Of a stretch of 64,000 nucleotides of DNA, positions 3,973 to 52,507 are shown one piece after another. The DNA lies in contig CANQQU010000005.1 of assembly GCA_947626085.1 (NCBI GenBank), positions 3,342-67,341 of the forward strand, written 5' to 3'. The position numbers were made by a program, and so were the translations under genes. The stretch is from an uncultured Oscillospiraceae bacterium. GTDB taxonomy: Bacteria > Bacillota > Clostridia > Oscillospirales > Oscillospiraceae. Positions within the stretch are counted from its first letter, which is position 1, and the number at the start of each line of letters is the position of its first letter. Under the pieces are notes generated by a model that saw only the letters and a program-made list of their open reading frames with translations, was not told where the DNA came from and did not search any database.

Positions 3973-4217
3973 TGGACACCCAAACAAAACGGGAGCGGGA
4001 AAGAGCCATGGTGACGAAAATGATCGCCCTTGGTTGCCTGGGGCTGGGTTCGGGAGCAGTGGTGGCTGTGCTGTCCATCTTACCCACCGTACCCTTTCTC
4101 TTACTGGCGGCGTTCTGCTTTGCGAAAAGCCCTGAACGCTTACATACTTGATTCATCGGCACAAAACTCTACAAGAACAACCTGGAAAGCTGGGCTCGCG
4201 GCCAAGGCATGACCTGA
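3972..4217 (+). pseudogene. DUF454/YbaN-family inner-membrane protein gene, nonsense-mutated and 3'-truncated
   Basis: The ATG overlaps the cydC stop (TGATG). The translation ...LPTVPFLLLAAFCFAKSPERLHT*FIGTKLYKNNLESWARGQGMT* matches the YbaN core (PF-LLAA-CFA-S-R-H-W). TGA at 4149-4151 sits where the family has a conserved Trp. The frame dies at the intron boundary, about 40 codons short of normal length. Confidence 0.6.
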
Positions 4218-26419: not shown

Positions 26420-27418
26420 ATGAAAAGAATTAAGTGGATCGCGCCACTGATTTTGGCGGCGCTCCTTCTGACCGCCTGCGCCGGCGGCGGGCAGGAGCCT
26501 CCCACGACCACCGCCGGGCAGGTGGTCAAGCTGATCGTGGACCAGAGCCCAGATCAGGTGGCCTATGTGGAAGGGGAGACCTTCGACCCTGCCGGAACGG
26601 TGATCAACGCCCAGCTGTCCGACGGCTCGATCCTGGAGGACGTGCCCTATACCGTCACGGTGGACACCCCCCTGACCCGGACTACGCTGTATGCCGAATT
26701 TGCCTACGGCGGCAAGACGGTGAGCATCCAGCTTCGGATCACTCTGGCGGGCAACGGCCCGGAATATACCTGTGAGAATACCCCCTTTGTCCCCGGCAGC
26801 CCTCTGGAGGGCAAGGTCATTTACTTCCTGGGCTCCTCCGTCACCTTGGGTGCCTATTCCGGGAATGAATCCATGGCGGACTACCTTGCCAAGAAGGATG
26901 GGGCTGTGTGCATCAAGGAAGCCGTGTCCGGCACCACCTTGGGGGATTTTAAGGACGGCAGTTATGTGGAGCGGCTGAATGCGTACCTGGCCTCTCCGGA
27001 CCGGGCGGAAAAGCTGGACGCCTTTGTGGTTCAGCTCTCCACCAACGACCGGAAATCCCCCAACCGCTACGGAGCTGTAACCGGCCCGGAGGTGCGGGAC
27101 CCGTCGGCCTTTGACATCACCACCTCCTTTGGCGCCATGGAGTATATCATTGCCACCGTCCGGCAGACCTGGGCTTGCCCGGTCTTCTTCTACACCAACC
27201 CGCCCCTGGACGAGGACTATGCAAAATTAGTGGAGGGCCTGGCTCAGATCGCGGAAAAGTGGAAGATCGGTGTGATCGATCTGTACCATGACCAAGCCTT
27301 CAACGACCTGACGGAGGAGGAATACGCCCTGTACATGGCCGACGAGGTCCATCCCACCAAGGCTGGCTACCGGGACTGGTGGCTACCGAAATTTGAGGAG
27401 GCACTGGCGGGGATCTGA
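26420..27418 (+). CDS. Lipoprotein with Ig-like domain and SGNH/GDSL-type hydrolase (carbohydrate esterase) domain
   Basis: The lipobox is LLTAC. Block I is FLGSSVTLG and block V is DEVHPT. Confidence 0.75.
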   Translation: MKRIKWIAPLILAALLLTACAGGGQEPPTTTAGQVVKLIVDQSPDQVAYVEGETFDPAGTVINAQLSDGSILEDVPYTVTVDTPLTRTTLYAEFAYGGKTVSIQLRITLAGNGPEYTCENTPFVPGSPLEGKVIYFLGSSVTLGAYSGNESMADYLAKKDGAVCIKEAVSGTTLGDFKDGSYVERLNAYLASPDRAEKLDAFVVQLSTNDRKSPNRYGAVTGPEVRDPSAFDITTSFGAMEYIIATVRQTWACPVFFYTNPPLDEDYAKLVEGLAQIAEKWKIGVIDLYHDQAFNDLTEEEYALYMADEVHPTKAGYRDWWLPKFEEALAGI

Positions 27419-27436
27419 GACAGCCCACCGTGAAAT

Positions 27437-27500
27437 CTGTGCCGCCGGATGGCAAGGTTGTGCGGTTTTGGTTGCATCACACGGCGGCAAATTGTACATT
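27437..27500 (+). promoter_or_regulatory. Box C: CTGTGCCG (27437-27444) and TTGTGCGG (27458-27465), then TACATT at 27495-27500
   Basis: It has the same 21-bp phasing and 29-nt gap. It lies upstream of the second GH3. Confidence 0.6.
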
Positions 27501-27536
27501 GTGTATGTTAAGACTACTAAAGGGAGGAAAACCGAT

Positions 27537-30500: not shown

Positions 30501-30551
30501 ATTTCAGCGCCGGGCTTTGGCCCGGCGCCTTTCCGCAGCCCAACATGAAAT

Positions 30552-30615
30552 CTGTGCCGCCGGATGGCAAGGTTGTGCGGTTTTGGTTGCATCACGCGGG
30601 GAAAAATTGTACATT
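30552..30615 (+). promoter_or_regulatory. Box D: CTGTGCCG (30552-30559) and TTGTGCGG (30573-30580), then TACATT at 30610-30615
   Basis: It is a near-identical copy of box C and lies upstream of the third GH3. Confidence 0.6.
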
Positions 30616-30651
30616 GTGTATGCTAAGACTACCAAAGGGAGGAAAACCGAT

Positions 30652-33621
30652 ATGAGCAAAAACCCCAAGAAAAAAGGCACGCTTTGGGCGGTCCTCACCG
30701 CCGTCACCGCCGTGCTGCTGATCATTTCCATTGTGGCGATCCCCATCACCAACTTTTTCTCCACCGCCATCAACGTGGCCCTGGGGGCCGTGACCCAGAA
30801 GGTGGTCCCCGACCCCGACGCAAAGATCTACTTCTGGTCCAACTACGACAGCGAGGAGGATCTGGTGGCTTTCGAGAAGCAGCTCTGCCGGGACATCGAG
30901 GGCGAGGGCGCGGCCCTGCTCGTGAACCGGGACAACACCCTGCCCCTTCCAGAAGGGACCAAGTTCACCCCCTTCTCCCAGTCCTCCTTTAACCTCCTCT
31001 ACGGCGGCACCGGCTCCGGCCAGGTCTCCGCCGATGACGCGGTCTCCCTGAAATCCGCCCTGGAGGAGTCCTTCGGCGAGAATACGGTGAACCTGGACCA
31101 GTGGAAATTCTACGCCACCTGCGGCTATGCCCGGGTCAATGCGGACACCACCGGCGGCAACCAGGCCCAGTACCGGATCAACGAGGTGCCCTGGGAGAAG
31201 TACACCGACGCCCTGCAGAGTACCTGGAGCGACTACGGCGACGTGGCCCTGGTGGTCCTGGCCCGGTCCGGCGGCGAGGGCGCGGATTTGCCCAGCGGCC
31301 TGCCGGAGCTGGAAGAGTACATGACGGATGGCGACTATCTCCGCCTGAACCGGGACGAACTGGATATGTTCGAGCATCTGGAGCAGCTGAAGAACGAGGG
31401 CGTCTTTAAGAAGATCGTGGTGCTGCTCAACTCCTCCAACACCCTGCAGCTGGACTTCGTGGACGACTATGGCATCGACGCGGTGCTGTGGATCGGCGAT
31501 GTGGGCATGACCGGTATCAACGCTGTCGCGGATATTTTGGCGGGCAAGATCAATCCCTCCGGCCGGATCGTAGACACCTTCCTGAAGGACAACCACTCCA
31601 GCCCCGCTATGCAGAATTTCGGCGCGTTCCCCTATACTAACGGAGCGGACTACAATGTGGCCACTGCCCAGAACAACACCGACCCTGGCATCAACAAGTG
31701 CAACCGGGACTATGTGGTCTACGCCGAGGGCATCTATGTGGGCTATCGGTACTATGAGACTCGTTATGAGGACTTTGTGCTGAATCAGGGCAACGCCGGG
31801 GACTATGACTATGACTCCGATGTAGCCTTCCCCTTCGGCTTTGGTCTGAGCTACACTGATTTCGCCTACTCTAATTTTAAAGTGGAGGATCAGGGCCAGA
31901 CCTTCCAGGTGGAGGTGGATGTGACCAACACCGGCGCGGTGGACGGCAAGCACACGGTGCAGATCTACTTCCAATCCCCCTACACCCAGTACGATATTGA
32001 CAACCAAGTGGAGAAAGCCGCCGTGGAGCTGTGCGGCTTCGACAAGAAGATGATCCCCGCCGGGGAAACCGAGCATTTCACCATCACGGTCAACAAGGAA
32101 GACCTGACTTCCTACGACCATATGAATGCCAAGACCTACATCTTGGACGCCGGGGACTACTACTTCACCGTGGGCAAGAATGCGCATGACGCGGTAAACA
32201 ACATCCTGATGGCCAAGGGCGCGGACGCGAGCCGCATGAGCGGTACCGGAGACGCCTCTCTGACCTACAAGTGGACTCTGGACGCTCTGGACAGCACCAC
32301 CTATGCGGTTTCCAGCAAGACCGGCAAGCCCATTACGAACCTCTTTGAAAACGCGGACCTGAACAAGTATGAGGGCGCCCAGGGCCAGACGGTCACTTAT
32401 CTGACCCGTTCCGACTGGACCGGCACCTTCCCCCAGACAGTGACCCTTTCCATCACCGACCAGATGTGGGCCGACGGCCTGACCCATGAGGAGGCAGGCA
32501 GGGTCGCCATCGTGGAGAAAATGAAGAGCCAGTATTATCCCGACGCTACCATGCCCGCCATGGGTGTGTCCGGCAGTCTCACCGCCGGCCAGTTTGCCGA
32601 GAAAGCAGCCGATGATCCGGATTGGGACCAGCTCATTGCCCAGATCCCTTATTCCGAGATGACCAACGTTATTTACAACGGCTTCCATCTGACCCAGCCG
32701 GTGCCCTCCATCGGTCTGCCCGGCACCAACGATGAAAACGGACCCCAGGGCTTCACCAAGAGCCTGGTGGGCGGTTCCTCCGCCATGGCCTACACCTCCG
32801 AGGATGTGATGGCCGCCACCTACAACCGGGAGCTCATTGAGAACATGGGCAAGTGCATCGGCGAGGACTTCCTCCACGCCACCGACGGCTCCGGCACCGT
32901 GTTCTCCGGCATCTATGGCCCCGGCGCCAACATCCACCGCACGCCTTACTCCGGCCGGAACTTTGAGTACTACTCCGAGGACGGCTGGCTGGCCGGGCAG
33001 GTCGCCTCCGTGGAGGTGGCCGCCATTCAGGACCGGGGCGTGTATGTGTTCACCAAGCACTTTGCCCTGAACGATCAGGAGGAAGGCCGCTACGGCATCT
33101 CCACCTGGTCTAACGAGCAGGCCATCCGGGAATTGTACCTGGAGGGTTTTGAAGGCAGCGTGAAGAACGGCGGCGGCATGGGCGTCATGAGCTCCTTCAA
33201 CCGGATCGGCGTCACCTGGTCCGGCGCGCACCACGGCCTGATGACCGGCATCCTCCGGGATGAATGGGGCATGACCGGCGCGGCCATCACCGACTGCTCC
33301 GTCATGGCCAATTACATGGACTACCGTATGGGCGTCCTGGCCGGCCAGGATCTTTGGGACGGCTATAGCAGCGGCATGGCCACTCTGGACGGCCTGGACA
33401 GTGATCCCGCCATCGTCACCGCGGTGCAGAACGCGGTGAAGCACATCACCTATTCCATCAGCCACAGCCACGCCATGAATGTGGGCAACGCCACCGTGGT
33501 GCTGGTAACGCCGGCATGGCAAATGGCCCTGTATATCCTGACGGGTGTGCTGGCAGTCCTCACCGCCGGATGCGCCGCGATGCTGGTGATCACCCGCCGG
33601 AAGGCCAAAAAGAACCAATAA
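30652..33621 (+). CDS. Glycoside hydrolase family 3, permuted, doubly membrane-anchored (paralog 3)
   Basis: It has the same architecture as paralog 2: MSKNPKKKGTLWAVLTAVTAVLL, KHFALNDQEEGR and GMTGAAITDCS. The C-terminal TM helix is followed by TRRKAKKNQ. Confidence 0.85.
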   Translation: MSKNPKKKGTLWAVLTAVTAVLLIISIVAIPITNFFSTAINVALGAVTQKVVPDPDAKIYFWSNYDSEEDLVAFEKQLCRDIEGEGAALLVNRDNTLPLPEGTKFTPFSQSSFNLLYGGTGSGQVSADDAVSLKSALEESFGENTVNLDQWKFYATCGYARVNADTTGGNQAQYRINEVPWEKYTDALQSTWSDYGDVALVVLARSGGEGADLPSGLPELEEYMTDGDYLRLNRDELDMFEHLEQLKNEGVFKKIVVLLNSSNTLQLDFVDDYGIDAVLWIGDVGMTGINAVADILAGKINPSGRIVDTFLKDNHSSPAMQNFGAFPYTNGADYNVATAQNNTDPGINKCNRDYVVYAEGIYVGYRYYETRYEDFVLNQGNAGDYDYDSDVAFPFGFGLSYTDFAYSNFKVEDQGQTFQVEVDVTNTGAVDGKHTVQIYFQSPYTQYDIDNQVEKAAVELCGFDKKMIPAGETEHFTITVNKEDLTSYDHMNAKTYILDAGDYYFTVGKNAHDAVNNILMAKGADASRMSGTGDASLTYKWTLDALDSTTYAVSSKTGKPITNLFENADLNKYEGAQGQTVTYLTRSDWTGTFPQTVTLSITDQMWADGLTHEEAGRVAIVEKMKSQYYPDATMPAMGVSGSLTAGQFAEKAADDPDWDQLIAQIPYSEMTNVIYNGFHLTQPVPSIGLPGTNDENGPQGFTKSLVGGSSAMAYTSEDVMAATYNRELIENMGKCIGEDFLHATDGSGTVFSGIYGPGANIHRTPYSGRNFEYYSEDGWLAGQVASVEVAAIQDRGVYVFTKHFALNDQEEGRYGISTWSNEQAIRELYLEGFEGSVKNGGGMGVMSSFNRIGVTWSGAHHGLMTGILRDEWGMTGAAITDCSVMANYMDYRMGVLAGQDLWDGYSSGMATLDGLDSDPAIVTAVQNAVKHITYSISHSHAMNVGNATVVLVTPAWQMALYILTGVLAVLTAGCAAMLVITRRKAKKNQ

Positions 33622-41546: not shown

Positions 41547-41852
41547 CCCCAAAAGGGGATATTATGCTGCATAGAAAGACAGACTGCCACATAAGGCCGC
41601 CCAAGAATTATTTAAATCGCGATCTACATACTGCAGTCCTCAAGGGGATTGCGGTATTTTTTGTTCGACACAAAACCCCAGAAAATATTATACATCGCCT
41701 GTTTTCATACTCCATTCGACGAAGAGCGCACCCAATAAAAACTGGGTGCGCCTCTTTAATGGAGGCGAAGGGAATTTGTGAAGGTTTTGATTGACGATTT
41801 ACCCAAATTCAGCTAGTATAGTAGCAGAATTAAAAACACGGGAGGAACTTTG

Positions 41853-42416
41853 ATGACGGAGCTTGAAGTTATGCGCAGGGCCAAGATGTACATCGATCAT
41901 ATGGCCAATGGGGTCAACCCCATCGACGGCGCCCCTGTGCCGGACGGGGATATTCTGAATAACGTGCGGATTTCCAGGTGCCTGTTTTATGTATCCGATA
42001 TTTTAAGGCAGGTTATTGAAAATAACGGAGTTATTGGCAGCCATCAGACCATCCGAAAGGCATATACCATTCCGGATGTGCGGAAATTTGCCCTTTCTGA
42101 GACGCCGATCCCTGTAAGCGAGATTGCCAAACGGTTAAACGACACCATCGATTTGGAGACATGCCGCAAATTCAGCTACACAGTCATCACTTCCTGGCTT
42201 CTTGAAATTGGGGCTTTGGAGGTAAGTAGTACCGCGGAGGGCAAAAACGCCAAGCGACCCACCTCCCAGGGAAACGCTCTGGGGATATCGGAAGAATTGC
42301 GAACAGGCGCAAAAGGAGAATATACGGTCGTCGTCTACAACAGAGAAGCCCAGCAGTTCCTCTTGGACAATATCGAATCCATCGTCGGCTCCGCAAATAC
42401 CCCAGGGAAAAAGTAG
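41853..42416 (+). CDS. Hypothetical protein (187 aa)
   Basis: The promoter-like TTGACG-17-TAGTAT lies at about 41792-41820 and the RBS is GGGAGG. No family recognised. Confidence 0.55.
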   Translation: MTELEVMRRAKMYIDHMANGVNPIDGAPVPDGDILNNVRISRCLFYVSDILRQVIENNGVIGSHQTIRKAYTIPDVRKFALSETPIPVSEIAKRLNDTIDLETCRKFSYTVITSWLLEIGALEVSSTAEGKNAKRPTSQGNALGISEELRTGAKGEYTVVVYNREAQQFLLDNIESIVGSANTPGKK

Positions 42417-42559
42417 ATCACGCAGACGGCAAAGCGCCATAAAACGCGGTGAAAAGGCCGCTCCGGCGGAACCACCCCGTTTCGGGCCCGCGCCGTGGGG
42501 CATGGACAGTGAATAAACTTTCAAATTACCGGCAGTCCCAACAGACCAAAGCGGCGGGA

Positions 42560-43291
42560 TCAGTCCCGCCGCTCGTTTTCGTTTTCATACCGCTCCCGGA
42601 ACCGGGCGGAGAAGGCCGGCTCCTCGCCGGCAGCGTAGAGATGGGAGATGTCCCCAAAGGCGCTCATCCGGAAATAGGCCAGCCCCTTCCGCCGTTCCTC
42701 CGTCACCAGGGTGGTCACCGACGAGGGGGCGGCGCAGAGCCCATGCCACAGCGGCATGGGGGAGATGTTCAGCAGGTGGCTCAGCAGCACACACTCCACG
42801 CCAAAGTGGCAGAAAAAGGCCAGGGTGTCTCCGTTTCCCGCCTCTGTCCGGTACAGCTGCCCCGCCCGGACGTAGCCGTGTTCCGCCAGGACCAGGTCCA
42901 AGCCCTGGCAGACCCAGTCGTAGGCCTGTTTGACCCCGCCCGCCTCCATGGCCGGGTGGCGATACCACCGATCCGGCAGGAAAAAGTCCGGCTCCGCCGT
43001 CCAGTCCCCAGGAAGCCAGTCCCAGGGCACCATGTCCCGGTCCGGGGCGTCGGGGCGGCGAATGGGGGCCTGAAATTCCCGGAGCCAGGGCTTGACCTCC
43101 GCTTCCCGATTTAGTTTCTCCAGGGTGGGGGCGGCGGTATCCCGGGCACGGCCCAATGGAGATGAATAAAACTTCCGTATTTCCAGAGCGGAAAGCCGGG
43201 ACGCCAGGAGCCAGGCTTCCCGGAAGCCCTTGGGTGTGAGAGAATCCCGGGCGTAGTCCGGGTCGGCGTGGCGGATGAGCAGCAGCTTCAT
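42560..43291 (-). CDS. Histidine phosphatase (phosphoglycerate-mutase-like) family protein
   Basis: MKLLLIRHADPDY carries the RHG-type motif. The length is typical of the family. Confidence 0.8.
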   Translation of the reverse strand: MKLLLIRHADPDYARDSLTPKGFREAWLLASRLSALEIRKFYSSPLGRARDTAAPTLEKLNREAEVKPWLREFQAPIRRPDAPDRDMVPWDWLPGDWTAEPDFFLPDRWYRHPAMEAGGVKQAYDWVCQGLDLVLAEHGYVRAGQLYRTEAGNGDTLAFFCHFGVECVLLSHLLNISPMPLWHGLCAAPSSVTTLVTEERRKGLAYFRMSAFGDISHLYAAGEEPAFSARFRERYENENERRD

Positions 43292-43413
43292 AGGGACCTC
43301 CCAATTTTTTGTCCATTATATCAGACCCTTTGGAACTTTGCAAGGGATGGGCAAAAAAGAGCGGGCGGAACGATTCCATCGCCACTTTTCTTCCGGGGAA
43401 AATGAAAAAATAC

Positions 43414-43442
43414 TTGTATATTTCCCAAAAATGTGATACGAT
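43414..43442 (+). promoter_or_regulatory. Candidate promoter TTGTAT-17 nt-TACGAT for the structured RNA
   Basis: The spacing is exactly 17 nt. The predicted start near 43449 coincides with the 5' strand of the closing helix. Confidence 0.5.
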
Positions 43443-43447
43443 ATCTT

Positions 43448-44058
43448 TTAGACGGCGCAGTATCCTAGTCGAAGCGGCCGGTTCCCAAGAAGGGCCTAAA
43501 AATCCTTTGAAGGGCATATCGATGAAGTCCCTGGTGTTTGCTTTTTGCGCCCAGCTTAGGGTGGATGCTGGGGGTTAAGGATCCCGGGCGCACCCCAATG
43601 GCATGGGGTATCCGACCCGGTTTCCGTGGAGACCTTTTCTTGTGCGACGGCGGAAGAGCCCCTGTTGGACCCGTCCGCGTACGAACTAGGTATGAACCTG
43701 CAAGGCGGTGCACAGAATCGTGTGCTGCGTGCAGAGTAGCCTGCCTTGCGTGGGTATGCGGGGAAAGGGGACAGGCGGAACGTTTCATGGCCATGGAATT
43801 TCCGCTATTGCTCCTGGAAACCATGCCTGCAAAAGAGGCTAAGAATCGGATCGCTTCGCAGTGGAAAACACCTAGGCTGTCTTAACCGGGCGGGCAGGGG
43901 ATTGCAGTACGGACTCAGTGGCAATCGGGTAGTCAGAACCGGCAACGCCTGAACAGACGGATCAAACGGAAACGGCCCGCACGGCAACGGCGGGTACCGT
44001 CCGGGGAAAACCAACCCGACCTAAGCCGTAAGATTTATCCTGCCTGCCGCCGTCTTAC
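43448..44058 (+). ncRNA. ole: Candidate OLE (ornate, large, extremophilic) RNA, about 610 nt
   Basis: The stretch of about 600 nt has no credible ORF. A long-range closing helix pairs GACGGCGCAG (43451-43460) with CTGCCGCCGTC (44044-44054), and there are many internal GC hairpins. It lies immediately upstream of a 4-TM DxxxD protein and dxs-tlyA-nadK-argR-recN, the published OLE context. No terminator separates it from the next gene. Confidence 0.6.
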
Positions 44059-44085
44059 TTAAACAATAAGGAGCGTTTCTTCCAA

Positions 44086-44679
44086 GTGGCTAAATCCGAC
44101 CCCGACGCAGGGAAAAAAGAGCGAAATAAGACGATCCGCTGGGTCGTCACCATTTTCCTGGTCACGCTTCTTGTCTCCGCGGTGATTTCCCTGATCTCCG
44201 AGGAGCTTTTGGACGGAAGCGGCATTTTCGCCGCCTTCCTGATCCTGTTTACCATCGTCTTTGTGGGCATCGTCTTTGATATCGTGGGCGTGGCCGTCAC
44301 CTCCGCTGATGAGCGGCCCTTCCACTCCATGGCCGCCAGGAAGGTCCCCGGGGCCCAGGAGGCCATCCGGCTTCTGCGCAACGCCGAGCGGGTCAGCTCC
44401 ATCTGCAACGACGTGGTGGGGGATATCTGCGGCGTGGTATCCGGCGCGGCTTCGGCGGTGATCGCGACCCAACTGATCCAAAATTTCTCCTTCAGCTGGC
44501 CCCGGGCGGCAGGCCTTTTCATGTCCGCCCTGGTGGCGGGTGTGACGGTGGGGGGTAAGGCCGTGGGCAAGACCCTTGCCATCGGCTCGGCCACCCAGAT
44601 CGTCCACCTGGTGGGGCGGCTGATCCACTGGTTCCGCACCTTGCCGGACTTGTTCCGCAAGGCAAAAAAGAAAAGTTAG
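44086..44679 (+). CDS. oapA: OLE-associated protein A-like small membrane protein
   Basis: 197 aa with four hydrophobic segments. It carries the DxxxD motif (NDVVGDICGVVSG) and sits between the RNA and dxs. Confidence 0.6.
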   Translation: MAKSDPDAGKKERNKTIRWVVTIFLVTLLVSAVISLISEELLDGSGIFAAFLILFTIVFVGIVFDIVGVAVTSADERPFHSMAARKVPGAQEAIRLLRNAERVSSICNDVVGDICGVVSGAASAVIATQLIQNFSFSWPRAAGLFMSALVAGVTVGGKAVGKTLAIGSATQIVHLVGRLIHWFRTLPDLFRKAKKKS

Positions 44680-44691
44680 GAAGATTATGCC

Positions 44692-46551
44692 GTGAGCATA
44701 TTGGAAAATATTCAGGGCCATCAGGACCTGCTGTGCCTGAACAATCAGGAGAGGCTCATTCTGTGCCGGGAGATCCGGGAATTTTTGGTCAGGAACGTCT
44801 CTCAAACCGGGGGCCATCTGGCCTCCAATTTAGGCGTGGTGGAGTTGACGGTGGCTTTGGAGACGGTATTTGATACCGCCGTTGACCGCCTGGTATTTGA
44901 CGTGGGTCATCAGTCTTATGTTCATAAGCTGCTGACCGGCCGCCAGGCGGATTTTAAGCGTCTGCGCCAGTTTGGCGGCATGGCGGGCTTTCCCAAGCCG
45001 GAGGAGAGCGATACCGACGCCTTTGTGGCGGGCCACGCCTCCAGCGCGGTGTCCGTGGCCCTGGGAATGGCCCGGGCAAGGACGCTGATGGGGGAGACCT
45101 ACTGCGTGGCCGCTGTTCTGGGGGACGGGGCCGCCACAGGGGGCTTGGCCTTCGAGGGCCTCAGCGATACCGCCGTCAGCGGGGAGCCCATGGTTATCAT
45201 TCTCAACGACAATGAGATGTCCATCGACAAAAATGTGGGGGGCCTTGCCAAGCACCTGGCCCATCTGCGCACCGACCAGCGGTATCTGGACATCAAGCAG
45301 TGGTACAAGCGGGCGCTGCTGAAAATTCCCGGCGGCGCCGCCCTCTATCGGTTTTCGCACAATCTGAAAAGCTGGCTCAAGCGTTCCCTGATCCCCTCCA
45401 CCATCTTTGACGAGATGGGCCTGACCTATTTGGGCCCGGTGGACGGCCACGATCTGCCCGCGCTTATCGCCTTGCTGCAATACGCGAAGAACGCGGAAAA
45501 GCCGGTGGTGGTCCATGTGCTGACCCAGAAGGGCCGGGGCTACGCCCCGGCGGAGCAGGACCCAGCCAAGTTCCATGGCGTGGGACCCTTCGATCCCGTC
45601 ACCGGCGAGGTGCCGGAAAAGGCCTGCGAGACCTTTTCCAAGCGGTTCGGGGAAGTTCTGTGCCATCTGGCGGAGGAGGATCGACGAATCTGCGCCATTA
45701 CCGCCGCCATGCCCGGTGGGACTGGGCTGCTGCCTTTCAAGGAGCTGTTTCCCAACCGCCTGTTCGACGTGGGCATTGCCGAGGGCCACGCCGTTACCAT
45801 GGCCGGGGGCCTTGCCAAGCAGGGCATGATCCCCGTAGCGGCCATCTATTCCACCTTCCTCCAGCGGTCCTATGATATGATCCTCCAGGACGTGGTCATG
45901 CTGGGACTCCATGTGGTGCTGGCGGTGGACCGGGCAGGACTGGTGGGCGAGGACGGGGCCACCCATCAAGGCACCTTCGATGTGGGATTTCTCCGTCAGG
46001 CCCCGGGATTGACCCTATTGGCCCCCGGCAGCCTGCTGGAATTGGAGCAAATGCTGACCTGGGCGGTCAAGGAGCAGTCCGGCCCCGTGGCGATCCGCTA
46101 TTCCCGGGGCGGGGAAGGGTCCTACCGGGATTCCGACTGGGGCGAGGGGCGGGTCTGCCGCCACAGAACCGGCGGGGACGCCGCGATTTTGACCTATGGA
46201 TGCCGGATGCTGGACAACGCCCTGGCGGCGGCGGACCGCCTGGCCGGGGAGGGGATTCAGTTAACGGTGCTGCGGCTGCTGGAGTTGTCCCCGCTGCCGT
46301 CGGAGGAGGTCCTTGCCCTGCTGCCCGACGGGCCCCTGATCATCGCGGAGGAGACCTGCGCCGGCGCCGGGATCAAGGAAGCTCTTGCCTGGGAGCTGGA
46401 GAGGCTGGGATTCGGCGGGACCGTTTTGGGCCTGGATCTGGGGCACCGGTTCATCCCCCACGGAGACATGAAATCCCTCTATGGGATGTGCGGCTTGGAC
46501 GGGGAATCCCTTGCCGCCGCCGTGAGAAAGGCGGTGGGCCGTGAAGATTAA
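44692..46551 (+). CDS. dxs: 1-deoxy-D-xylulose-5-phosphate synthase
   Basis: 619 aa with a GTG start. The TPP motif is LGDGAATGG, and DVGIAEGHAVTMAGGLA is present. Confidence 0.9.
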   Translation: MSILENIQGHQDLLCLNNQERLILCREIREFLVRNVSQTGGHLASNLGVVELTVALETVFDTAVDRLVFDVGHQSYVHKLLTGRQADFKRLRQFGGMAGFPKPEESDTDAFVAGHASSAVSVALGMARARTLMGETYCVAAVLGDGAATGGLAFEGLSDTAVSGEPMVIILNDNEMSIDKNVGGLAKHLAHLRTDQRYLDIKQWYKRALLKIPGGAALYRFSHNLKSWLKRSLIPSTIFDEMGLTYLGPVDGHDLPALIALLQYAKNAEKPVVVHVLTQKGRGYAPAEQDPAKFHGVGPFDPVTGEVPEKACETFSKRFGEVLCHLAEEDRRICAITAAMPGGTGLLPFKELFPNRLFDVGIAEGHAVTMAGGLAKQGMIPVAAIYSTFLQRSYDMILQDVVMLGLHVVLAVDRAGLVGEDGATHQGTFDVGFLRQAPGLTLLAPGSLLELEQMLTWAVKEQSGPVAIRYSRGGEGSYRDSDWGEGRVCRHRTGGDAAILTYGCRMLDNALAAADRLAGEGIQLTVLRLLELSPLPSEEVLALLPDGPLIIAEETCAGAGIKEALAWELERLGFGGTVLGLDLGHRFIPHGDMKSLYGMCGLDGESLAAAVRKAVGRED

Positions 46552-47344
46552 AAAGCGCTTGGACGTGCTGCTGACGGAGCGGGGCTTCGCGGAAAACCGC
46601 ACCAAAGCCCAGGCTGTCATCATGAGCGGCCAGGTCTATGTCAACGGGCAGAAGGCCGATAAACCGGGGGCTTCCTTTGAGGAGACGGCGGCTCTGGAGG
46701 TGCGGGGGGAGACCTGTCCCTATGTCAGCCGGGGCGGCTATAAGCTGGAAAAGGCCCTGGATACCTTCGGCATTGACCCACAGGGCTATGTGTGCAGTGA
46801 TTCCGGCGCCTCCACCGGCGGCTTTACCGACTGCCTGTTACAGCGGGGCGCCAAGAAGGTGTTCGCCATCGACGTGGGCTACGGGCAGCTGGACTACCGG
46901 CTCCGTTCCGACCCCCGGGTGGTGGTGATGGAACGCACCAATATCCGCTACGTCACCCCGGAGCAAATCGGGGAGCAGCTGGATCTGTCGGTGGTGGACG
47001 TGAGCTTTATCTCCTTGAAGCTGGTGCTGCCGGTCATTGACCGGCTTCTGAAGGAAACCGGCCAGGTGGTCTGCCTGATCAAGCCCCAGTTTGAGGCGGG
47101 GCGGGAAAAGGTGGGCAAGAAAGGCGTGGTCCGGGAAAAGGACACCCATTTGGAGGTGCTGCGGGACTTTTTGACCATGGCCCAGGCGCTGGGATTTACT
47201 GTGCTGGGGCTGACCTATTCCCCGGTCAAGGGGCCGGAGGGAAATATCGAGTTTTTGGCGCACCTAAGCAAGCTGCCGGGGGAACAGACCTGCCCGGAGC
47301 CTGCCCAGGTGGTGGAGGATGCCCATGAGGCGCTGAAGGGGTGA
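46541..47344 (+). CDS. tlyA: TlyA-family rRNA 2'-O-methyltransferase
   Basis: An S4 domain at the N-terminus (RLDVLLTERGF) is followed by the SAM motif DSGASTGGFTD. Confidence 0.8.
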   Translation: MKIKKRLDVLLTERGFAENRTKAQAVIMSGQVYVNGQKADKPGASFEETAALEVRGETCPYVSRGGYKLEKALDTFGIDPQGYVCSDSGASTGGFTDCLLQRGAKKVFAIDVGYGQLDYRLRSDPRVVVMERTNIRYVTPEQIGEQLDLSVVDVSFISLKLVLPVIDRLLKETGQVVCLIKPQFEAGREKVGKKGVVREKDTHLEVLRDFLTMAQALGFTVLGLTYSPVKGPEGNIEFLAHLSKLPGEQTCPEPAQVVEDAHEALKG

Positions 47345-48207
47345 AATTGTTGAAAAAGGTGGTCATGACCCCCAATCCCTACCGGGATAAGAGCTTTTCC
47401 ACCGTCCGGGCGGCGATGGAGATCCTCAGAGCCGCTGGGGTGGAGGTGAAGCTCTGCCTGCCCTTCGAGGTGGACCGGAGCTACAGCATGCCCAAGGATC
47501 TGCGCTTTTCCCGGCTGGACCGGGAGCTGCCGGAGGCGGACGCGGTGATCTGCTTTGGCGGGGACGGGACGATCCTGCACATGGCAAAGGCGGCGACCCG
47601 CTGCGGAAAGCCGGTGCTGGGTGTGAACATCGGAACCATGGGCTTCATGGCGGAACTGGAAAGTACCGAGCTGGATCAGCTGCCCCGGCTCACCACCGGG
47701 GACTTTACGCTGGACAGCCGGATGATGCTGGACGTCTCCGTCCAGCGGGGCCGGGACATTCTCTTTCACGATATCTGCCTCAACGACGCGGTGGTGACCA
47801 AGGGCGCGGTGGCCCGGATCATTCAGCTGGCGGTGAAGTGCGACGGGGTGGAGTGCCTGGAATTTGGCGGGGATGGGCTGATCATTGCCACGCCCACCGG
47901 CTCCACAGCTTACAGCCTCTCCGCCGGGGGTCCCATTGTGGAGCCGGAGGCCGCCAACATTCTGATCACCCCCATCTGCGCCCACGACGTGGGCAGCCGC
48001 TGCGTTGTGGCCTCGGATCAGCGGGTGGTGACGGTGAGCCTGGGGAAAAACGCCCGCCGGAACGCCTTTTTATCCGTGGACGGGGGCAAGGCCCTGCGCC
48101 TGGAGGCGGGAGACGTGGCCACGGTGCGCAAGTCGCGGCTGGTGACCAAACTGATCCGTCTGAAAAGCCGGAGCTTTTACGATGTGCTGAATATGAAATT
48201 TAAATAA
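47341..48207 (+). CDS. nadK: NAD kinase
   Basis: It has the GGDGT motif (ICFGGDGTILH) and typical length. The true start may be the ATG at 47365. Confidence 0.85.
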   Translation: MKLLKKVVMTPNPYRDKSFSTVRAAMEILRAAGVEVKLCLPFEVDRSYSMPKDLRFSRLDRELPEADAVICFGGDGTILHMAKAATRCGKPVLGVNIGTMGFMAELESTELDQLPRLTTGDFTLDSRMMLDVSVQRGRDILFHDICLNDAVVTKGAVARIIQLAVKCDGVECLEFGGDGLIIATPTGSTAYSLSAGGPIVEPEAANILITPICAHDVGSRCVVASDQRVVTVSLGKNARRNAFLSVDGGKALRLEAGDVATVRKSRLVTKLIRLKSRSFYDVLNMKFK

Positions 48208-48231
48208 CCAACAGATATAGGGAGGAACAAC

Positions 48232-48684
48232 ATGAAGAATCAACGTCAGGCCAAGATCCTGGAATTGATCACCACCCGCCAGGTGGAGACCCAGGAGCAG
48301 CTCCTCGCCCTTTTGGAGGCGGAGGGGATCCATACCACCCAGGCCACCATTTCCCGGGACGTGAAGGAGCTACGCATTGTCAAGGAGCTGACCGGCTTGG
48401 GCACCTACCGCTACACCACGGCGGACAACGCGGTGTCCGGCAATTTTTCCACCCGGCTCCACACCATTTTCCGGGAGAGCGTTACATCTCTGGACTATGC
48501 CCAGAATATCATCGTCATCCGCACCCTGCCGGGCCTGGCCTCCGCCGCCGGTTCCGCTCTGGACGCCATGAGCCTCAGCGCCGTGGTGGGTACTCTGGCA
48601 GGGGACGACACCCTGATCGTGATCATGCGGGACAGCAATACCGCCGCCTCCTTCTGCGGCGAGATCAAGAATCTGCTGAACTGA
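48232..48684 (+). CDS. argR: Arginine repressor
   Basis: 150 aa with a winged-helix N-terminus and the C-terminal motif GTLAGDDT. Confidence 0.85.
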   Translation: MKNQRQAKILELITTRQVETQEQLLALLEAEGIHTTQATISRDVKELRIVKELTGLGTYRYTTADNAVSGNFSTRLHTIFRESVTSLDYAQNIIVIRTLPGLASAAGSALDAMSLSAVVGTLAGDDTLIVIMRDSNTAASFCGEIKNLLN

Positions 48685-48702
48685 TGGGAAAGGAGCGCCG
48701 GG

Positions 48703-50355
48703 ATGCTGAGTCTTCTGCATATTGAAAATATCGCGGTGGTGGAGCGGGCGGAGATCGCCTTTCACCCCGGTTTCAACGTGCTGACCGGCGAGACCGGCGC
48801 GGGCAAATCCATCGTGATCGACGCCATTTCCGCCATTCTGGGCCGCCGGGCCTACCGGGACATGATCCGCACCGGGGAGAGCCGGGCCAGCGTCCGGGCG
48901 ATTTTCACCCAGGTGCCGGAGCTAGACTGGTTTCAGGAAAACGGGGTGCCCTATGACCCGGAGACGGTGATCCAGCGGGAGATCTACCTGGACGGGCGGA
49001 ACGTGTGCCGTGTCAACGGCAGCCTGGTGACGGTGTCCATCCTCCACTCACTGGGAATCCAGCTGATCAACATTCATGGGCAGCACGACGCCGCCACCCT
49101 CTTTGACGAGGAAAACCACCTGCAATATCTGGACGCCTACGCTGAAAATCAGGCTCTGCGCCAGGACTACGGGGAAAAATACACCGCCCTGGCCGCTCTG
49201 CGAAAGAAAATCGACAGCCTGACCATGGACGAGGGGGAGAAGCTCCGGCGGATGGAGTCCCTGCAATACCAGATCCAGGAGATCACCCGGGCCAACCTGA
49301 CCCCGGGGGAGGACGAGGCCCTGGAGGAGCGGCGCAAGATTTTGCAAAACGCGGAAAAACTGAGCAGCGGGATGGATGCCGCCGTGGAGTGCCTCTACGG
49401 CGGGGAGGATACCGACGGCGCCGCCGGATTGCTTTCGGAGGCGGAGCGGGAGCTGAGCCGCCTGGCCCGGTTCGGGGAGCCCTTCGCGACCCTACACCGG
49501 CAGGTGGCGGACCTTAAATATCAGGTACAGGACGCCGCCGAGGAGGCCCGCGCCGCTAGGGACGATCTGAGCTACTCCGCCGACGAGCTGGAACAGATCG
49601 AGAGCCGCCTGGATGTGATCCACCGCCTTCGGCGGAAATATGGCGCCACTTGCGCCGACATCCTGGAATACCTGGACAAGGCCCAGGCGGAGCTGGACAA
49701 GATCCAGTTTTCCGACGAGGAGCTGGAAAAGTTGAAGGCGCTGCGCGCCGCCGCGGAAAAAGCGGCCCTGGACGCGGCCCAGGCTCTGTCTCAAAACCGG
49801 CAGGAGGCCGGGAAGCGCCTTTCCCAGGCCATTTTGGAGGAGCTGCGGCAGCTGGATATGCCCAGGGTGCAGTTTGCCTGTCCATTCACCCAGACCCCTC
49901 TGGGGCCCAACGGCATGGATGCCGCCGCCTTTTATCTCTCCGCCAACGCCGGGGAGGCGCTGAAGCCTCTGAGCCGGGTGGCCTCCGGCGGCGAGCTGGC
50001 CCGGATCATGCTGGCAATGAAAAATGTCCTGGCCCGGCAGGATCAGGTGGCGACTCTGATTTTCGATGAAGTGGATACCGGCGTCTCCGGCCGGGCGGCC
50101 CAGAAGGTGGCGGAGAAGCTCCGCAATCTGGCCCGGGACAAGCAGGTACTCTGCGTCACCCATTTGCCCCAGCTGGCGGCCCTGGGGGATACCCATCTGC
50201 TCATCTCCAAGTCCGAGCGGGATGGCCGGACCTACACCACCGTTACCCCCCTGGACCGGGAGGGCCGGATCCGGGAGCTTGCCCGGATCATCGGCGGGGC
50301 CAGCATCACCCCCATCACCCTGCAAAGCGCGGCGGAAATGCTGGACCATACTTGA
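48703..50355 (+). CDS. recN: DNA repair protein RecN
   Basis: Walker A is GETGAGKS. A coiled-coil middle region is followed by the C-terminal ASGGELARIMLA and LIFDEVDTG. Confidence 0.9.
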   Translation: MLSLLHIENIAVVERAEIAFHPGFNVLTGETGAGKSIVIDAISAILGRRAYRDMIRTGESRASVRAIFTQVPELDWFQENGVPYDPETVIQREIYLDGRNVCRVNGSLVTVSILHSLGIQLINIHGQHDAATLFDEENHLQYLDAYAENQALRQDYGEKYTALAALRKKIDSLTMDEGEKLRRMESLQYQIQEITRANLTPGEDEALEERRKILQNAEKLSSGMDAAVECLYGGEDTDGAAGLLSEAERELSRLARFGEPFATLHRQVADLKYQVQDAAEEARAARDDLSYSADELEQIESRLDVIHRLRRKYGATCADILEYLDKAQAELDKIQFSDEELEKLKALRAAAEKAALDAAQALSQNRQEAGKRLSQAILEELRQLDMPRVQFACPFTQTPLGPNGMDAAAFYLSANAGEALKPLSRVASGGELARIMLAMKNVLARQDQVATLIFDEVDTGVSGRAAQKVAEKLRNLARDKQVLCVTHLPQLAALGDTHLLISKSERDGRTYTTVTPLDREGRIRELARIIGGASITPITLQSAAEMLDHT

Positions 50356-50380
50356 CAAAACGGTTTTTTTCTGCTAGGAT
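50352..50380 (+). promoter_or_regulatory. Promoter TTGACA-17 nt-TAGGAT
   Basis: It has a consensus -35 and exact 17-nt spacing, and overlaps the recN stop. Confidence 0.55.
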
Positions 50381-50386
50381 ACTACC

Positions 50387-50638
50387 AACGCGATGAAGGG
50401 ATGCTTAGTCGCCCCCAACCCCTCCAGAGAGCTGCCGGTCGGTGCGAGGCAGCGGGGCAGGCGATGAAATTACCTCCCGGAGCGGCCCGCCTGAAAAGTT
50501 GTAGGGCGGGACGGGTCGGCCCGATAGCGCCGGGGTGTGCTTCACACCGTGAGGGCATGGCCGGGAGGCCCTGCCGAATCAGAGGTGGTACCGCGTAAAT
50601 TACGCCCTCTGTCCAATTGGACAGGGGGATTTTCATTT
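50387..50638 (+). promoter_or_regulatory. T-box leader (tRNA-sensing riboswitch), probable Tyr specifier
   Basis: It has the AGAGAG box and a distal GGTGCGAGG loop. GAAATTACC contains UAC. The T-box sequence AGAGGTGGTACCGCG lies at 50581-50595. The terminator CCCTCTGTCC-AATT-GGACAGGGGG is followed by a T-run at 50605-50638. Confidence 0.85.
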
Positions 50639-50651
50639 GGGAGGGAGAAAA

Positions 50652-51287
50652 ATGGTAAACATCACTTATTTGGGCCACGCCTGCTTCCTGCTGGAGGCGG
50701 AGGGCTACCGGACGGTGCTGGACCCATACGCAAACGGCGCCGTGCCGGGCCTTTTGGACCTGGATCTGGCGGCGGAAGCGGTGTATTGCAGCCACGGCCA
50801 CGGGGACCACAACGCCGCGGACCGGGTGAAGCTGACCCGGACGGCTCTCCGGCCCCCTTACACCCTGGCCGAGATTCCCGTGCCCCACGACGACGCCGGC
50901 GGTGCCAAGCGGGGGATGTGTACCGCCCGGGTGTTTGACTTCGGCGGCCTCCGGGTGGCCCACCTGGGGGACATCGGCCGGACGCTGACCCAGGAGGAGG
51001 CGGAAATTTTGGCGGGTGTGGACTGCCTGCTCCTGCCGGTGGGCGGCTTTTTCACCGTGGACGCGGCTCAGGCCGCCCAGATCGTCCGGCAGGCGGGGGC
51101 GAAGGTCGTGATCCCCATGCACTACCGGACGAAAACCACCGGCTATCCCGTCATCGGCAAGCTGGACCGATTCACCCGGCAGTTTGGCGCCGTCTATCAG
51201 GAGGGCGACACCCTGGCCCTGACGGTGGATACCCCGGCGGGGATCCATGTACTCAAACAAAAAATGGCAAAAGGAGAAGAATCATGA
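50652..51287 (+). CDS. MBL-fold metallo-hydrolase
   Basis: It has the HxHxDH motif (CSHGHGDHN). It lies between the T-box leader and tyrS, with an ATGA overlap to tyrS. Confidence 0.75.
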   Translation: MVNITYLGHACFLLEAEGYRTVLDPYANGAVPGLLDLDLAAEAVYCSHGHGDHNAADRVKLTRTALRPPYTLAEIPVPHDDAGGAKRGMCTARVFDFGGLRVAHLGDIGRTLTQEEAEILAGVDCLLLPVGGFFTVDAAQAAQIVRQAGAKVVIPMHYRTKTTGYPVIGKLDRFTRQFGAVYQEGDTLALTVDTPAGIHVLKQKMAKGEES

Positions 51288-52507
51288 AGCTTTACGACGA
51301 GCTGGTGGCCCGGGGGTTGATCGCCCAGGTCACGGATGAAAACGAGATCCGCACCATGATCGACGAGGGCAAGGCCACCTTCTATATCGGCTTTGACTGC
51401 ACGGCGGACAGCCTGACCGCCGGGCATTTCATGGCTCTGACCCTGATGAAGCGGCTGCAAATGGCGGGGAACAAGCCCATCGCCCTGATCGGCGGGGGCA
51501 CCACCATGATCGGAGACCCCTCCGGCCGGACGGATATGCGGAAAATGCTGACCAAGGAGGACATCGACCACAACGCCGCCTGCTTCAAGCGGCAGATGGA
51601 GCGGTTCATCGAATTCGGCCCGGGCAAGGCCCAGATGGTGAACAATGCGGACTGGCTGCTGGATTTGAATTATGTTAACCTTTTGCGGGAGGTGGGGGCC
51701 TGCTTCTCCGTGAACAATATGCTCCGGGCGGAGTGCTATAAGCAGCGGATGGAGCGGGGACTGTCCTTCCTGGAGTTCAACTACATGATCATGCAGTCCT
51801 ACGACTTTTACTACCTGTTCCAGCACTACGGCTGCAATATGCAGTTTGGCGGCAACGACCAGTGGAGCAATATGCTGGGCGGCACCGAGCTGATTCGCCG
51901 GAAGCTGGGCAAGGACGCCCACGCCATGACCATCACCCTGCTCACCGACTCCCAGGGCAATAAGATGGGCAAGACCGCCGGCAACGCCGTCTGGCTGGAC
52001 CCCAACAAGACCAGCCCCTTTGACTTCTACCAGTACTGGCGGAACGTGGGAGACGCGGACGTGATGAAGTGCGTCCGGATGCTGACCTTCCTGCCCATGG
52101 AGCAGATCGCGGAGATGGACGCCTGGAAGGACGCCAAGCTCAACGAGGCCAAGGAGATCCTGGCCTTCGAGCTGACCAAGCTGGTCCACGGTCCGGAGGA
52201 GGCGGAGAAGGCCCAGGCCGCCGCTCGGGCCCTGTTTGCCGGTTCCGGGACATCCGGGGAGATGCCCACCACCAAGATCCAGCCGGAGGCGCAGAAGGAC
52301 GGGAAAATCGGCATTCTGACCTTGATGGTTTCCTGCGGCCTGGCCGCCTCCAACGGCGAGGCCCGCCGCCTGGTGCAGCAGGGGGGCGTGTTCCTGAACG
52401 GGGACAAGGTCCCCGGAGCCGACGCCGCCGTTACCGAGGATCAGCTCCGGGCCGGGGCGGTCCTGCGCAAGGGCAAAAAGGTCTTCCACAAGGCGATCCT
52501 GGACTAA
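51284..52507 (+). CDS. tyrS: Tyrosine--tRNA ligase
   Basis: It has a HIGH-like TAGHFM, the KMSKS variant KMGKT, and a C-terminal S4 domain. Confidence 0.9.
   Translation: MKLYDELVARGLIAQVTDENEIRTMIDEGKATFYIGFDCTADSLTAGHFMALTLMKRLQMAGNKPIALIGGGTTMIGDPSGRTDMRKMLTKEDIDHNAACFKRQMERFIEFGPGKAQMVNNADWLLDLNYVNLLREVGACFSVNNMLRAECYKQRMERGLSFLEFNYMIMQSYDFYYLFQHYGCNMQFGGNDQWSNMLGGTELIRRKLGKDAHAMTITLLTDSQGNKMGKTAGNAVWLDPNKTSPFDFYQYWRNVGDADVMKCVRMLTFLPMEQIAEMDAWKDAKLNEAKEILAFELTKLVHGPEEAEKAQAAARALFAGSGTSGEMPTTKIQPEAQKDGKIGILTLMVSCGLAASNGEARRLVQQGGVFLNGDKVPGADAAVTEDQLRAGAVLRKGKKVFHKAILD

Follow-up and report, generated by a model that had tools for sequence, protein, structure and literature searches.

Introduction

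OLE RNA is among the most intriguing non-coding RNAs of bacteria, and a membrane-spanning arrangement has been proposed for it. A stretch of 64,000 nucleotides (nt) from an uncultured gut Oscillospiraceae bacterium (NCBI GenBank assembly GCA_947626085.1, contig CANQQU010000005.1, positions 3,342 to 67,341 of the forward strand), hereafter called the window, carries at positions 43414-44679 a hairpin-dense interval that runs directly into the gene of a small membrane protein. The locus raises the question of whether this interval is an ole gene, encoding OLE RNA, together with the gene of the protein partner OapA. It also raises the question of how such an RNA would be transcribed in a place where ispA, the upstream neighbour in described examples, is missing. 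An earlier note on the same DNA had proposed both the RNA and its partner from size, structure and gene order. Herein, the proposal is examined by covariance-model scans, protein comparison and comparative analysis of related loci. We are nearly certain that 43414-44679 is the ole-oapA module of this bacterium.

The RNA and its conserved fold

Positions 42000-46000 were scanned against all Rfam families, and the whole window was scanned in addition. The sole match in 42000-46000 was OLE (RF01071) at 43436-44069 on the plus strand, with a score of 429.6 bits against a gathering score of 50 and an E-value of 5.2e-124. The alignment covers model positions 1-616 of 616 and is not truncated, so that the covariance-model check bears out the OLE call of the earlier note. 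A second OLE copy was not found in the whole-window scan. The extent of the RNA is as follows.

43436 to 44069, plus strand: OLE RNA gene, as the extent of the RF01071 covariance-model match
43451 to 44054, plus strand: structured core of the OLE RNA, 604 nt, from one strand of the closing helix P1 to the other

In the printed RF01071 alignment, the window RNA matches nearly all of the upper-case (highly conserved) consensus nucleotides. Deletions relative to the model are only 1-4 nt long, and the insertions of 15 and 8 nt are both located in helix tips. The 15-nt insertion relative to the consensus lies at 43659-43673 on the plus strand, in a tip whose length and sequence are variable in the alignment of related RNAs (columns ~208-242).

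A 2024 survey found 2,822 OLE genes across the Bacillota in GTDB and divided them into a full-length type and two reduced variants (PMC11332333). In the reduced variants 1 and 2, which also occur in uncultured gut Bacillota, P7-P9 are shortened or missing (PMC11332333). The window RNA is about 600 nt long and covers the whole model; it belongs to the same RNA class as the reduced variants but is without their P7-P9 deletions, and it is not of the variant 1 or 2 type. The OLE of Halalkalibacterium halodurans C-125, the model example, is matched by the same model over its full length, with 538.6 bits versus 429.6 in the window. The window OLE is an ordinary full-length member of a known RNA class. 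A reading of the region as a single hairpin or a riboswitch was excluded by the full-length OLE match.

The fold was then evaluated thermodynamically and comparatively. The minimum free energy of a 607-nt core was -257 kcal/mol, with z = -3.79 against dinucleotide shuffles. An alignment of 63 distinct homologous RNAs from related genomes was analyzed via RNAalifold, and 183 consensus pairs were obtained, 73 of which carry at least one compensatory double change. Shared phylogeny notwithstanding, this pattern of compensatory changes is the one expected of a functional structured RNA.

A terminator-like hairpin is present inside the OLE RNA at 43619-43634 on the plus strand, with the sequence GGUUUCCGUGGAGACC followed by UUUUCUUGUG. 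It is a conserved OLE helix, and the clade alignment indicates that the U-run after it is specific to the window's own clade. As a terminator, this site was treated as a chance resemblance.

The closing helix P1

A long-range helix had been predicted to close the interval, between 43451-43460 and 44044-44054. This helix is the OLE stem P1, and its core consists of the 7 base pairs formed by the two strands below.

43451 to 43457, plus strand: P1 5' strand GACGGCG, pairing with 44048-44054
44048 to 44054, plus strand: P1 3' strand CGCCGUC, pairing with 43451-43457

The P1 core is paired in all 63 homologues (100%), and an eighth, outer pair is not conserved among them. Two-sided changes were found at three core positions (GC/AU/GU, AU/GC and UA/UG/CG). 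Neither the paired fraction nor the covariation score of P1 was reached in any of 500 column shuffles, and the signal was destroyed when the partner strand was slid.

The OapA partner

The open reading frame (ORF) directly 3' of the RNA starts 32 nt past the P1 3' strand.

44068 to 44073, plus strand: Shine-Dalgarno-like AAGGAG for oapA, 12 nt before the GTG, seen in the sequence
44086 to 44679, plus strand: oapA, a 197-amino-acid (aa) membrane protein with a GTG start, from BLASTP, motif and synteny

The N-terminus of the encoded protein aligns with the Met starts of its homologues. The reference OapA sequence was taken from Supplementary Table 4 of Kretsch et al. 2025 (PMC12286853); it is 94% identical to an H. 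halodurans protein, the differences being probably drop-outs of text extraction. By BLASTP, the window protein is 40% identical to this reference over 178 aa (E 4e-37). The DxxxD motif is present as D109-V-V-G-D113, and both Asp residues are invariant in an alignment of 26 sequences. The protein is a clear homologue of H. halodurans OapA, in agreement with the earlier note.

The H. halodurans and window proteins share the CNDV(I/V)GDI block, which holds the DxxxD motif, and an E(K/R)PFH(A/S)MA block. Both proteins are about 200 aa long without soluble domains, both genes lie directly 3' of ole, and the N- and C-termini diverge. A match to the CNNM/DUF21 family (PF01595) was obtained below the threshold (24.3 bits versus 28.4, E 2.8e-5), and the same was seen in 19 of the 26 homologues. 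Pfam and NCBIfam scans of the 197-aa protein gave no family above threshold and no CBS or CorC domain. In the literature, OapA is weakly homologous to the CNNM domain of MpfA, has no CBS and CorC domains, and is distinguished by the DxxxD motif, which is absent from CNNM domains (PMC11332333). The weak CNNM match, the DxxxD motif and the 40% identity to the reference therefore identify the ORF at 44086-44679 as OapA.

The CNNM-family Mg2+ transporters MpfA, CorB and CorC were considered as relatives. The window protein shows a weak likeness to the transmembrane domain of CNNM proteins (PF01595), as published for OapA (PMC11332333). Unlike MpfA, CorB and CorC, it stays below the CNNM cut-off, has no CBS pair or CorC/HlyC domain, and carries DxxxD. 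Membership in this family was rejected, as the CNNM match is sub-threshold and 197 aa leave no room for CBS and CorC domains. An NCBIfam match to a conjugal-transfer pilin-like family was sub-threshold and spurious; NCBIfam is without an OapA model. Sequence searches of the PDB with the protein and with its profile gave chance-level matches only (E >= 0.66).

Related loci and the linkage to ispA

A genome collection was scanned with the OapA sequence, and 80 loci were found, all in Oscillospiraceae, Faecousia or unclassified Clostridia metagenome-assembled genomes (MAGs) from animal or human guts. The closest OapA sequences, 89-98% identical, are from five 'Lapin' MAGs, which are apparently rabbit-derived; the next nearest are from Faecousia spp. 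OLE belongs to anaerobic or extremophilic Bacillota, and the nearest contigs (97-98% OapA identity) place the window host in this group, as judged by their titles. By nhmmer, 78 of the 80 loci have OLE directly upstream of oapA, and the other two contigs start too near oapA for it to be seen. The downstream gene order is also conserved among the eligible loci, with dxs in 67/68, tlyA in 65/65, nadK in 65/65, argR in 64/64 and recN in 55/55.

The upstream side is different, as synteny is not conserved there. The most frequent arrangement has a Y-family DNA polymerase gene together with a NUDIX gene. Genes for SmpB, a ZIP transporter, a GDSL lipase, a transporter of the major facilitator superfamily and a polysaccharide deacetylase occur in other relatives, and a histidine phosphatase gene, as in the window, occurs only in the closest ones (L001-L005).

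On the H. halodurans contig, the order of genes is accB-accC-asp23-nusB-folD-xseA-xseB-ispA-[OLE, 538.6 bits]-oapA-dxs-tlyA-argR-recN-spoIVB-spo0A. The description of ole as lying downstream of ispA is thus correct for H. halodurans, and the window is without ispA: no ispA or polyprenyl synthetase gene was found in the 64 kb by tblastn with an E. coli IspA query. This query was validated by a match in the related locus L045 (42%, 1.9e-45) that was confirmed as PF00348. Among the 57 loci whose upstream sequence is 1.5 kb or longer, L045 is the only one with ispA within 10 kb upstream, at a distance of 5.5 kb. The detachment from ispA, which had been presented as unusual, is the rule across the sampled Oscillospiraceae/Faecousia clade. 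It is evidently an old, clade-wide state and not a peculiarity of the window.

It was also observed that 14 of the 80 metagenome contigs with related loci start within the OLE gene (L006, L010, L015, L022, L027, L033, L037, L038, L048, L049, L050, L060, L067 and L076). Near-identical OLE stretches of co-occurring species probably break metagenome assemblies, as rRNA genes do. If so, such breaks would bias surveys of the genes upstream of ole.

The ole promoter

A promoter, TTGTAT-17-TACGAT, had been proposed to aim transcription at the 5' strand of P1. Both hexamers are present, and the elements of the promoter region are listed below.

43399 to 43413, plus strand: candidate proximal UP-element, the A-rich tract aaaatgaaaaaatac directly 5' of the -35, from position and composition
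43414 to 43419, plus strand: -35 hexamer TTGTAT, seen in the sequence
43434 to 43442, plus strand: extended -10 TGaTACGAT (TG 43434-43435; TACGAT 43437-43442), seen in the sequence
43449 to 43451, plus strand: predicted transcription start, 7-9 nt past the -10, at the first P1 bases, from promoter geometry

The promoter was compared across 60 non-redundant related loci, and it is conserved in all of them. The -35 is TTGTAT in 50 loci, TTGCAT in 6, TTGAAT in 3 and TTGAAC in 1. The spacer between -35 and -10 is 17 nt in 60/60. The TG at 43434-43435, which the earlier note did not mention and which makes this an extended -10 promoter, is invariant (60/60), and the -10 reads TANNAT in every locus. 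The distance between the promoter block and the invariant GCAGUAU of the RNA is 42+/-1 nt. Sequence conservation starts at the A-tract, whose consensus is TgAAAaaAtAC, and none is seen farther upstream. The A-rich tract of the window is a candidate UP-element by its position and composition. A single instance of the clade pattern TTGNAYA-N13-TGNTANNAT was found in the window, and 0 of 100 shuffles contained it. On this comparative evidence, TTGTAT-17-TACGAT is a real promoter.

The -10 ends 8-9 nt before P1, and transcription should therefore start at or just before the first P1 base. The predicted start at 43449-43451 would agree with the 5' ends mapped near the P1 start in Bacillus halodurans (PMC3413148). 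A proximal promoter of ole is itself not new. In B. halodurans, an active proximal promoter with RNA 5' ends near the P1 start was shown in 2012; it is induced by short-chain alcohols, and expression is raised more than 100-fold (Wallace et al. 2012, PMC3413148). This removes the novelty that had been implied for a promoter of ole's own. Similarly, the H. halodurans sequence just upstream of P1 carries TTGAGC-17-TGgTATAAT, so that a proximal extended -10 promoter is common to both loci. P1 begins about 9 nt past the -10 in the window and about 18 nt past it in H. halodurans. In the Rfam consensus, the opening positions ('uaauau') fall on the -10 region.

The probable transcription unit and its neighbours

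The flanking genes had been named as dxs, tlyA, nadK, argR and recN downstream and a divergent phosphatase gene upstream, and Pfam and NCBIfam scans returned the same set.

42560 to 43291, minus strand: divergent histidine phosphatase superfamily gene (Pfam His_Phos_1, E 1.6e-16)
43343 to 43315, minus strand: promoter-like TTGCAA-17-TATAAT with TG, for the phosphatase gene, from the promoter scan
44692 to 46551, plus strand: dxs (Pfam, NCBIfam)
46541 to 47344, plus strand: tlyA (Pfam, NCBIfam)
47341 to 48207, plus strand: nadK (Pfam, NCBIfam)
48232 to 48684, plus strand: argR (Pfam, NCBIfam)
48703 to 50355, plus strand: recN (Pfam, NCBIfam)

The phosphatase gene is context and not a part of the OLE unit. 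In H. halodurans, ole follows accB...ispA, and co-transcription with these genes is possible (PMC3413148); in the window, the upstream gene is divergent. Because of this orientation, ole transcripts can arise here from the proximal promoter only. Still farther from ole on that side, the window carries genes of the aldo-keto reductase, esterase and LysR types as well as an extended series of glycoside-hydrolase genes.

Both loci have P1 closing the fold, oapA immediately downstream, and then dxs, tlyA, argR and recN. The window has nadK between tlyA and argR, which is not in the H. halodurans locus. At most junctions from oapA to recN, the genes overlap or are separated by no more than 12 nt. 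No terminator-like site was found between P1 and oapA, as the earlier note had stated. The tail after the P1 3' strand is UCUUACUU, which is not a convincing U-tract, and a T-run of at least 5 right after P1 is found in 20 of the 63 relatives only. A terminator after P1 was rejected as a general feature on these two grounds. From 44000 to 50352, no plus-strand promoter-like site and no convincing terminator were found. In the simplest reading, ole through recN would be a single transcription unit, and the stable RNA would be released from it by processing.

Several further features were observed around this unit. A promoter-like TTGACA-17-TAGGAT at 50352-50380 on the plus strand precedes a T-box leader at 50384-50612 (plus strand, 102 bits), which has a terminator hairpin at 50605-50628. 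The T-box is followed by a gene for a metallo-beta-lactamase (MBL)-fold hydrolase at 50637-51287 (plus strand), which overlaps tyrS at 51284-52507 (plus strand). Among the relatives, an MBL gene between T-box and tyrS was seen only in the closest ones, L003 and L005; the Faecousia loci are without it and have tyrS closer behind recN. On the upstream side, a 188-aa ORF at 41850-42416 (plus strand) has no Pfam or NCBIfam match and is 87% conserved in the related locus L002. A 221-aa ORF at 42449-43114 (plus strand), antisense to the phosphatase gene, is probably spurious.

A possible regulatory site in the promoter flank

The sequence around the -35 is near-invariant among the related loci (ACTTGTATATTCA). 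Upstream of it, TATACA is found exactly 22 nt before the start of the -35 in 19 of the 60 loci, and TGTATA in 4 more. Either hexamer occurs anywhere in the 37-nt upstream interval in 30/60 loci versus 2.9 expected from shuffles, a statistic that is inflated by shared ancestry. In these related loci, TATACA and the -35 TTGTATA together form the inverted repeat TATACAA-N15-TTGTATA. The distal TATACA element is absent from the window's own lineage (equivalent position ~43392).

The TATACA element may serve as an operator, or it may belong to an UP element as its distal part. For the conserved flank as a whole, the UP-element reading is at least as likely as a regulator site. By eye, none of the ARG-box, the CodY-box, the cre consensus and sporulation-sigma promoters fitted the conserved promoter flank. 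A broader proposal is that the Oscillospiraceae ole promoter is the sole driver of the ~6.9-kb ole-oapA-dxs-tlyA-nadK-argR-recN unit and that its flanks may hold the site of a dedicated regulator. We regard this proposal as speculative and rather unlikely.

Weighing of the assignment and of alternative explanations

Several points weigh against the assignment of this locus as a working ole-oapA module. The first concerns the alignments: related sequences share ancestry, and the conservation counts given above overstate the number of independent observations. The promoter is far from consensus, as the -35 matches TTGACA at 3 of 6 positions and the -10 TACGAT matches TATAAT at 4 of 6. A generic promoter scan did not list the ole promoter because its -35 holds only those three consensus positions. 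The transcription start, the 3'-end formation and the operon extent of the ole unit are predictions from the DNA sequence. The binding of OLE to OapA, the membrane localization and the physiological role are presumed for the window host by homology.

The protein side also holds such points. The earlier note had described a protein with four transmembrane helices. Only three 19-aa windows (residues 20-38, 46-64 and 110-128) pass the Kyte-Doolittle value of 1.6; these three are strong, and the putative fourth helix, an Ala/Gly-rich segment at residues ~141-161, is weaker and falls below the strict cut-off. The AlphaFold2 model made from the 26-sequence alignment is all-helical and of low confidence (pLDDT 54.8, pTM 0.35). 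Homologues of OapC and bS21 were not found in the window by tblastn. The missing OapC and bS21 say little, as the oapB, oapC and bS21 genes are normally unlinked to ole.

Among the alternatives, the one that survives best is that the RNA is mainly cis-acting, as a long 5' leader through which expression of oapA-dxs-tlyA-nadK-argR-recN would be controlled at the level of attenuation, processing or stability. Such a leader would fit the continuous path from the RNA into oapA, where a terminator was not found. It would also fit the position of the ole promoter, as no other plus-strand promoter-like element was found in front of the co-oriented genes, about 6.9 kb in all, and the T-runs of at least 5 after P1 in 20/63 relatives could give partial termination. 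However, the OLE of B. halodurans is an abundant, discrete RNA of about 600 nt that accumulates as one very stable species and localizes to the membrane, and the ole phenotypes of that bacterium are rescued in trans by ole-oapA from a plasmid or from a distant chromosomal site (PMC3413148). OLE RNA also forms defined dimers and binds several protein partners (PMC12286853, PMC12265935). An RNA of about 600 nt with ~25% near-invariant nucleotides far exceeds the known leaders. A mainly cis-acting role is thus very unlikely.

The locus could also be a decaying, non-functional OLE relic, left after a rearrangement that removed the genes on the ispA side. The upstream synteny is indeed unlike that of H. 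halodurans, and TACGAT, found in 2/60 loci, is among the least consensus-like -10 variants of the clade. These two features are outweighed by the full-length match without truncation or large deletion, by the compensatory changes that keep the paired regions across the clade, and by an intact and conserved oapA. Moreover, the ispA-less arrangement is common to the sampled relatives, which points to an old and stable state. The relic is effectively refuted by the full-length match, the compensatory changes and the intact oapA, and its probability is negligible.

The interval had been called an ORF-poor structured stretch of about 610 nt, and the structured part of this description stands as a full-length OLE, whereas several spurious ORFs of 50-119 aa overlap it in the mechanical list. 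That one of the overlapping 68-119 aa ORFs (such as plus-strand 43538-43885 or minus-strand 43465-43824) is a real gene can be dismissed, since substitutions across the 63 homologues preserve base pairs and not reading frames, the variable helix tips contain indels of lengths not divisible by three, and a covariance match of 430 bits explains the conservation. At a G+C content of 56%, spurious ORFs are to be expected.

Other features of the window

Two further systems elsewhere in the window are recorded here. A group II intron is located at 4217-6953 on the minus strand. Rfam matches cover its D1-D4 part (RF02004, 6748-6953) and domain V/VI (RF00029, 4217-4301), and these parts flank a 637-aa ORF at 4378-6291 (minus strand) with RVT_1 and HNH domains. 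Three large GH3 paralogues of 963-1035 aa are encoded on the plus strand at 21693-24584, 27393-30500 and 30517-33621. Their domain order is permuted, with the Pfam 'C-terminal' GH3 domain before the 'N-terminal' catalytic domain. They lie inside a long carbohydrate-utilization cluster with rhamnosidase, GH2, fucose isomerase-like and FGGY kinase genes.

Discussion

The ole-oapA assignment suggests the following course of events in the window host. A sigma-A-type promoter (A-tract, TTGTAT, 17 nt, TGaTACGAT) would start transcription at P1 or 1-2 nt before it. The resulting OLE RNA of about 604 nt would fold into the conserved multi-stem architecture, with P1 as its closing helix. As no terminator follows OLE, the polymerase would read on into oapA and probably through dxs, tlyA, nadK, argR and recN. 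As in the homologous H. halodurans system, the stable OLE RNA may dimerize, bind an OapA dimer (2:1) and be tethered by it to the membrane (PMC12265935, PMC3413148, PMC12286853). The OLE ribonucleoprotein, with OapB, OapC and bS21, may then contribute to the tolerance of short-chain alcohols, cold, excess Mg2+ and poor carbon sources.

The RNA class, the OapA partner, the downstream gene cluster and a promoter of ole's own are all already published. The copy in the window is detected by the public Rfam model and matters little beyond its correct annotation. A modest gain lies in the comparison with relatives. In about 60 gut Oscillospiraceae/Faecousia genomes, ole always comes with a conserved extended -10 promoter set for a start at P1. 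If the proposal of a sole promoter with a dedicated regulator's site were true, it would give a first handle on the control of OLE RNA levels, together with isoprenoid-precursor, NADP and repair genes. The conserved block begins exactly at the promoter, and the genes upstream of it vary. Therefore, ole-oapA-dxs-tlyA-nadK-argR-recN travels as a self-contained block, for which the linkage to ispA is not needed.

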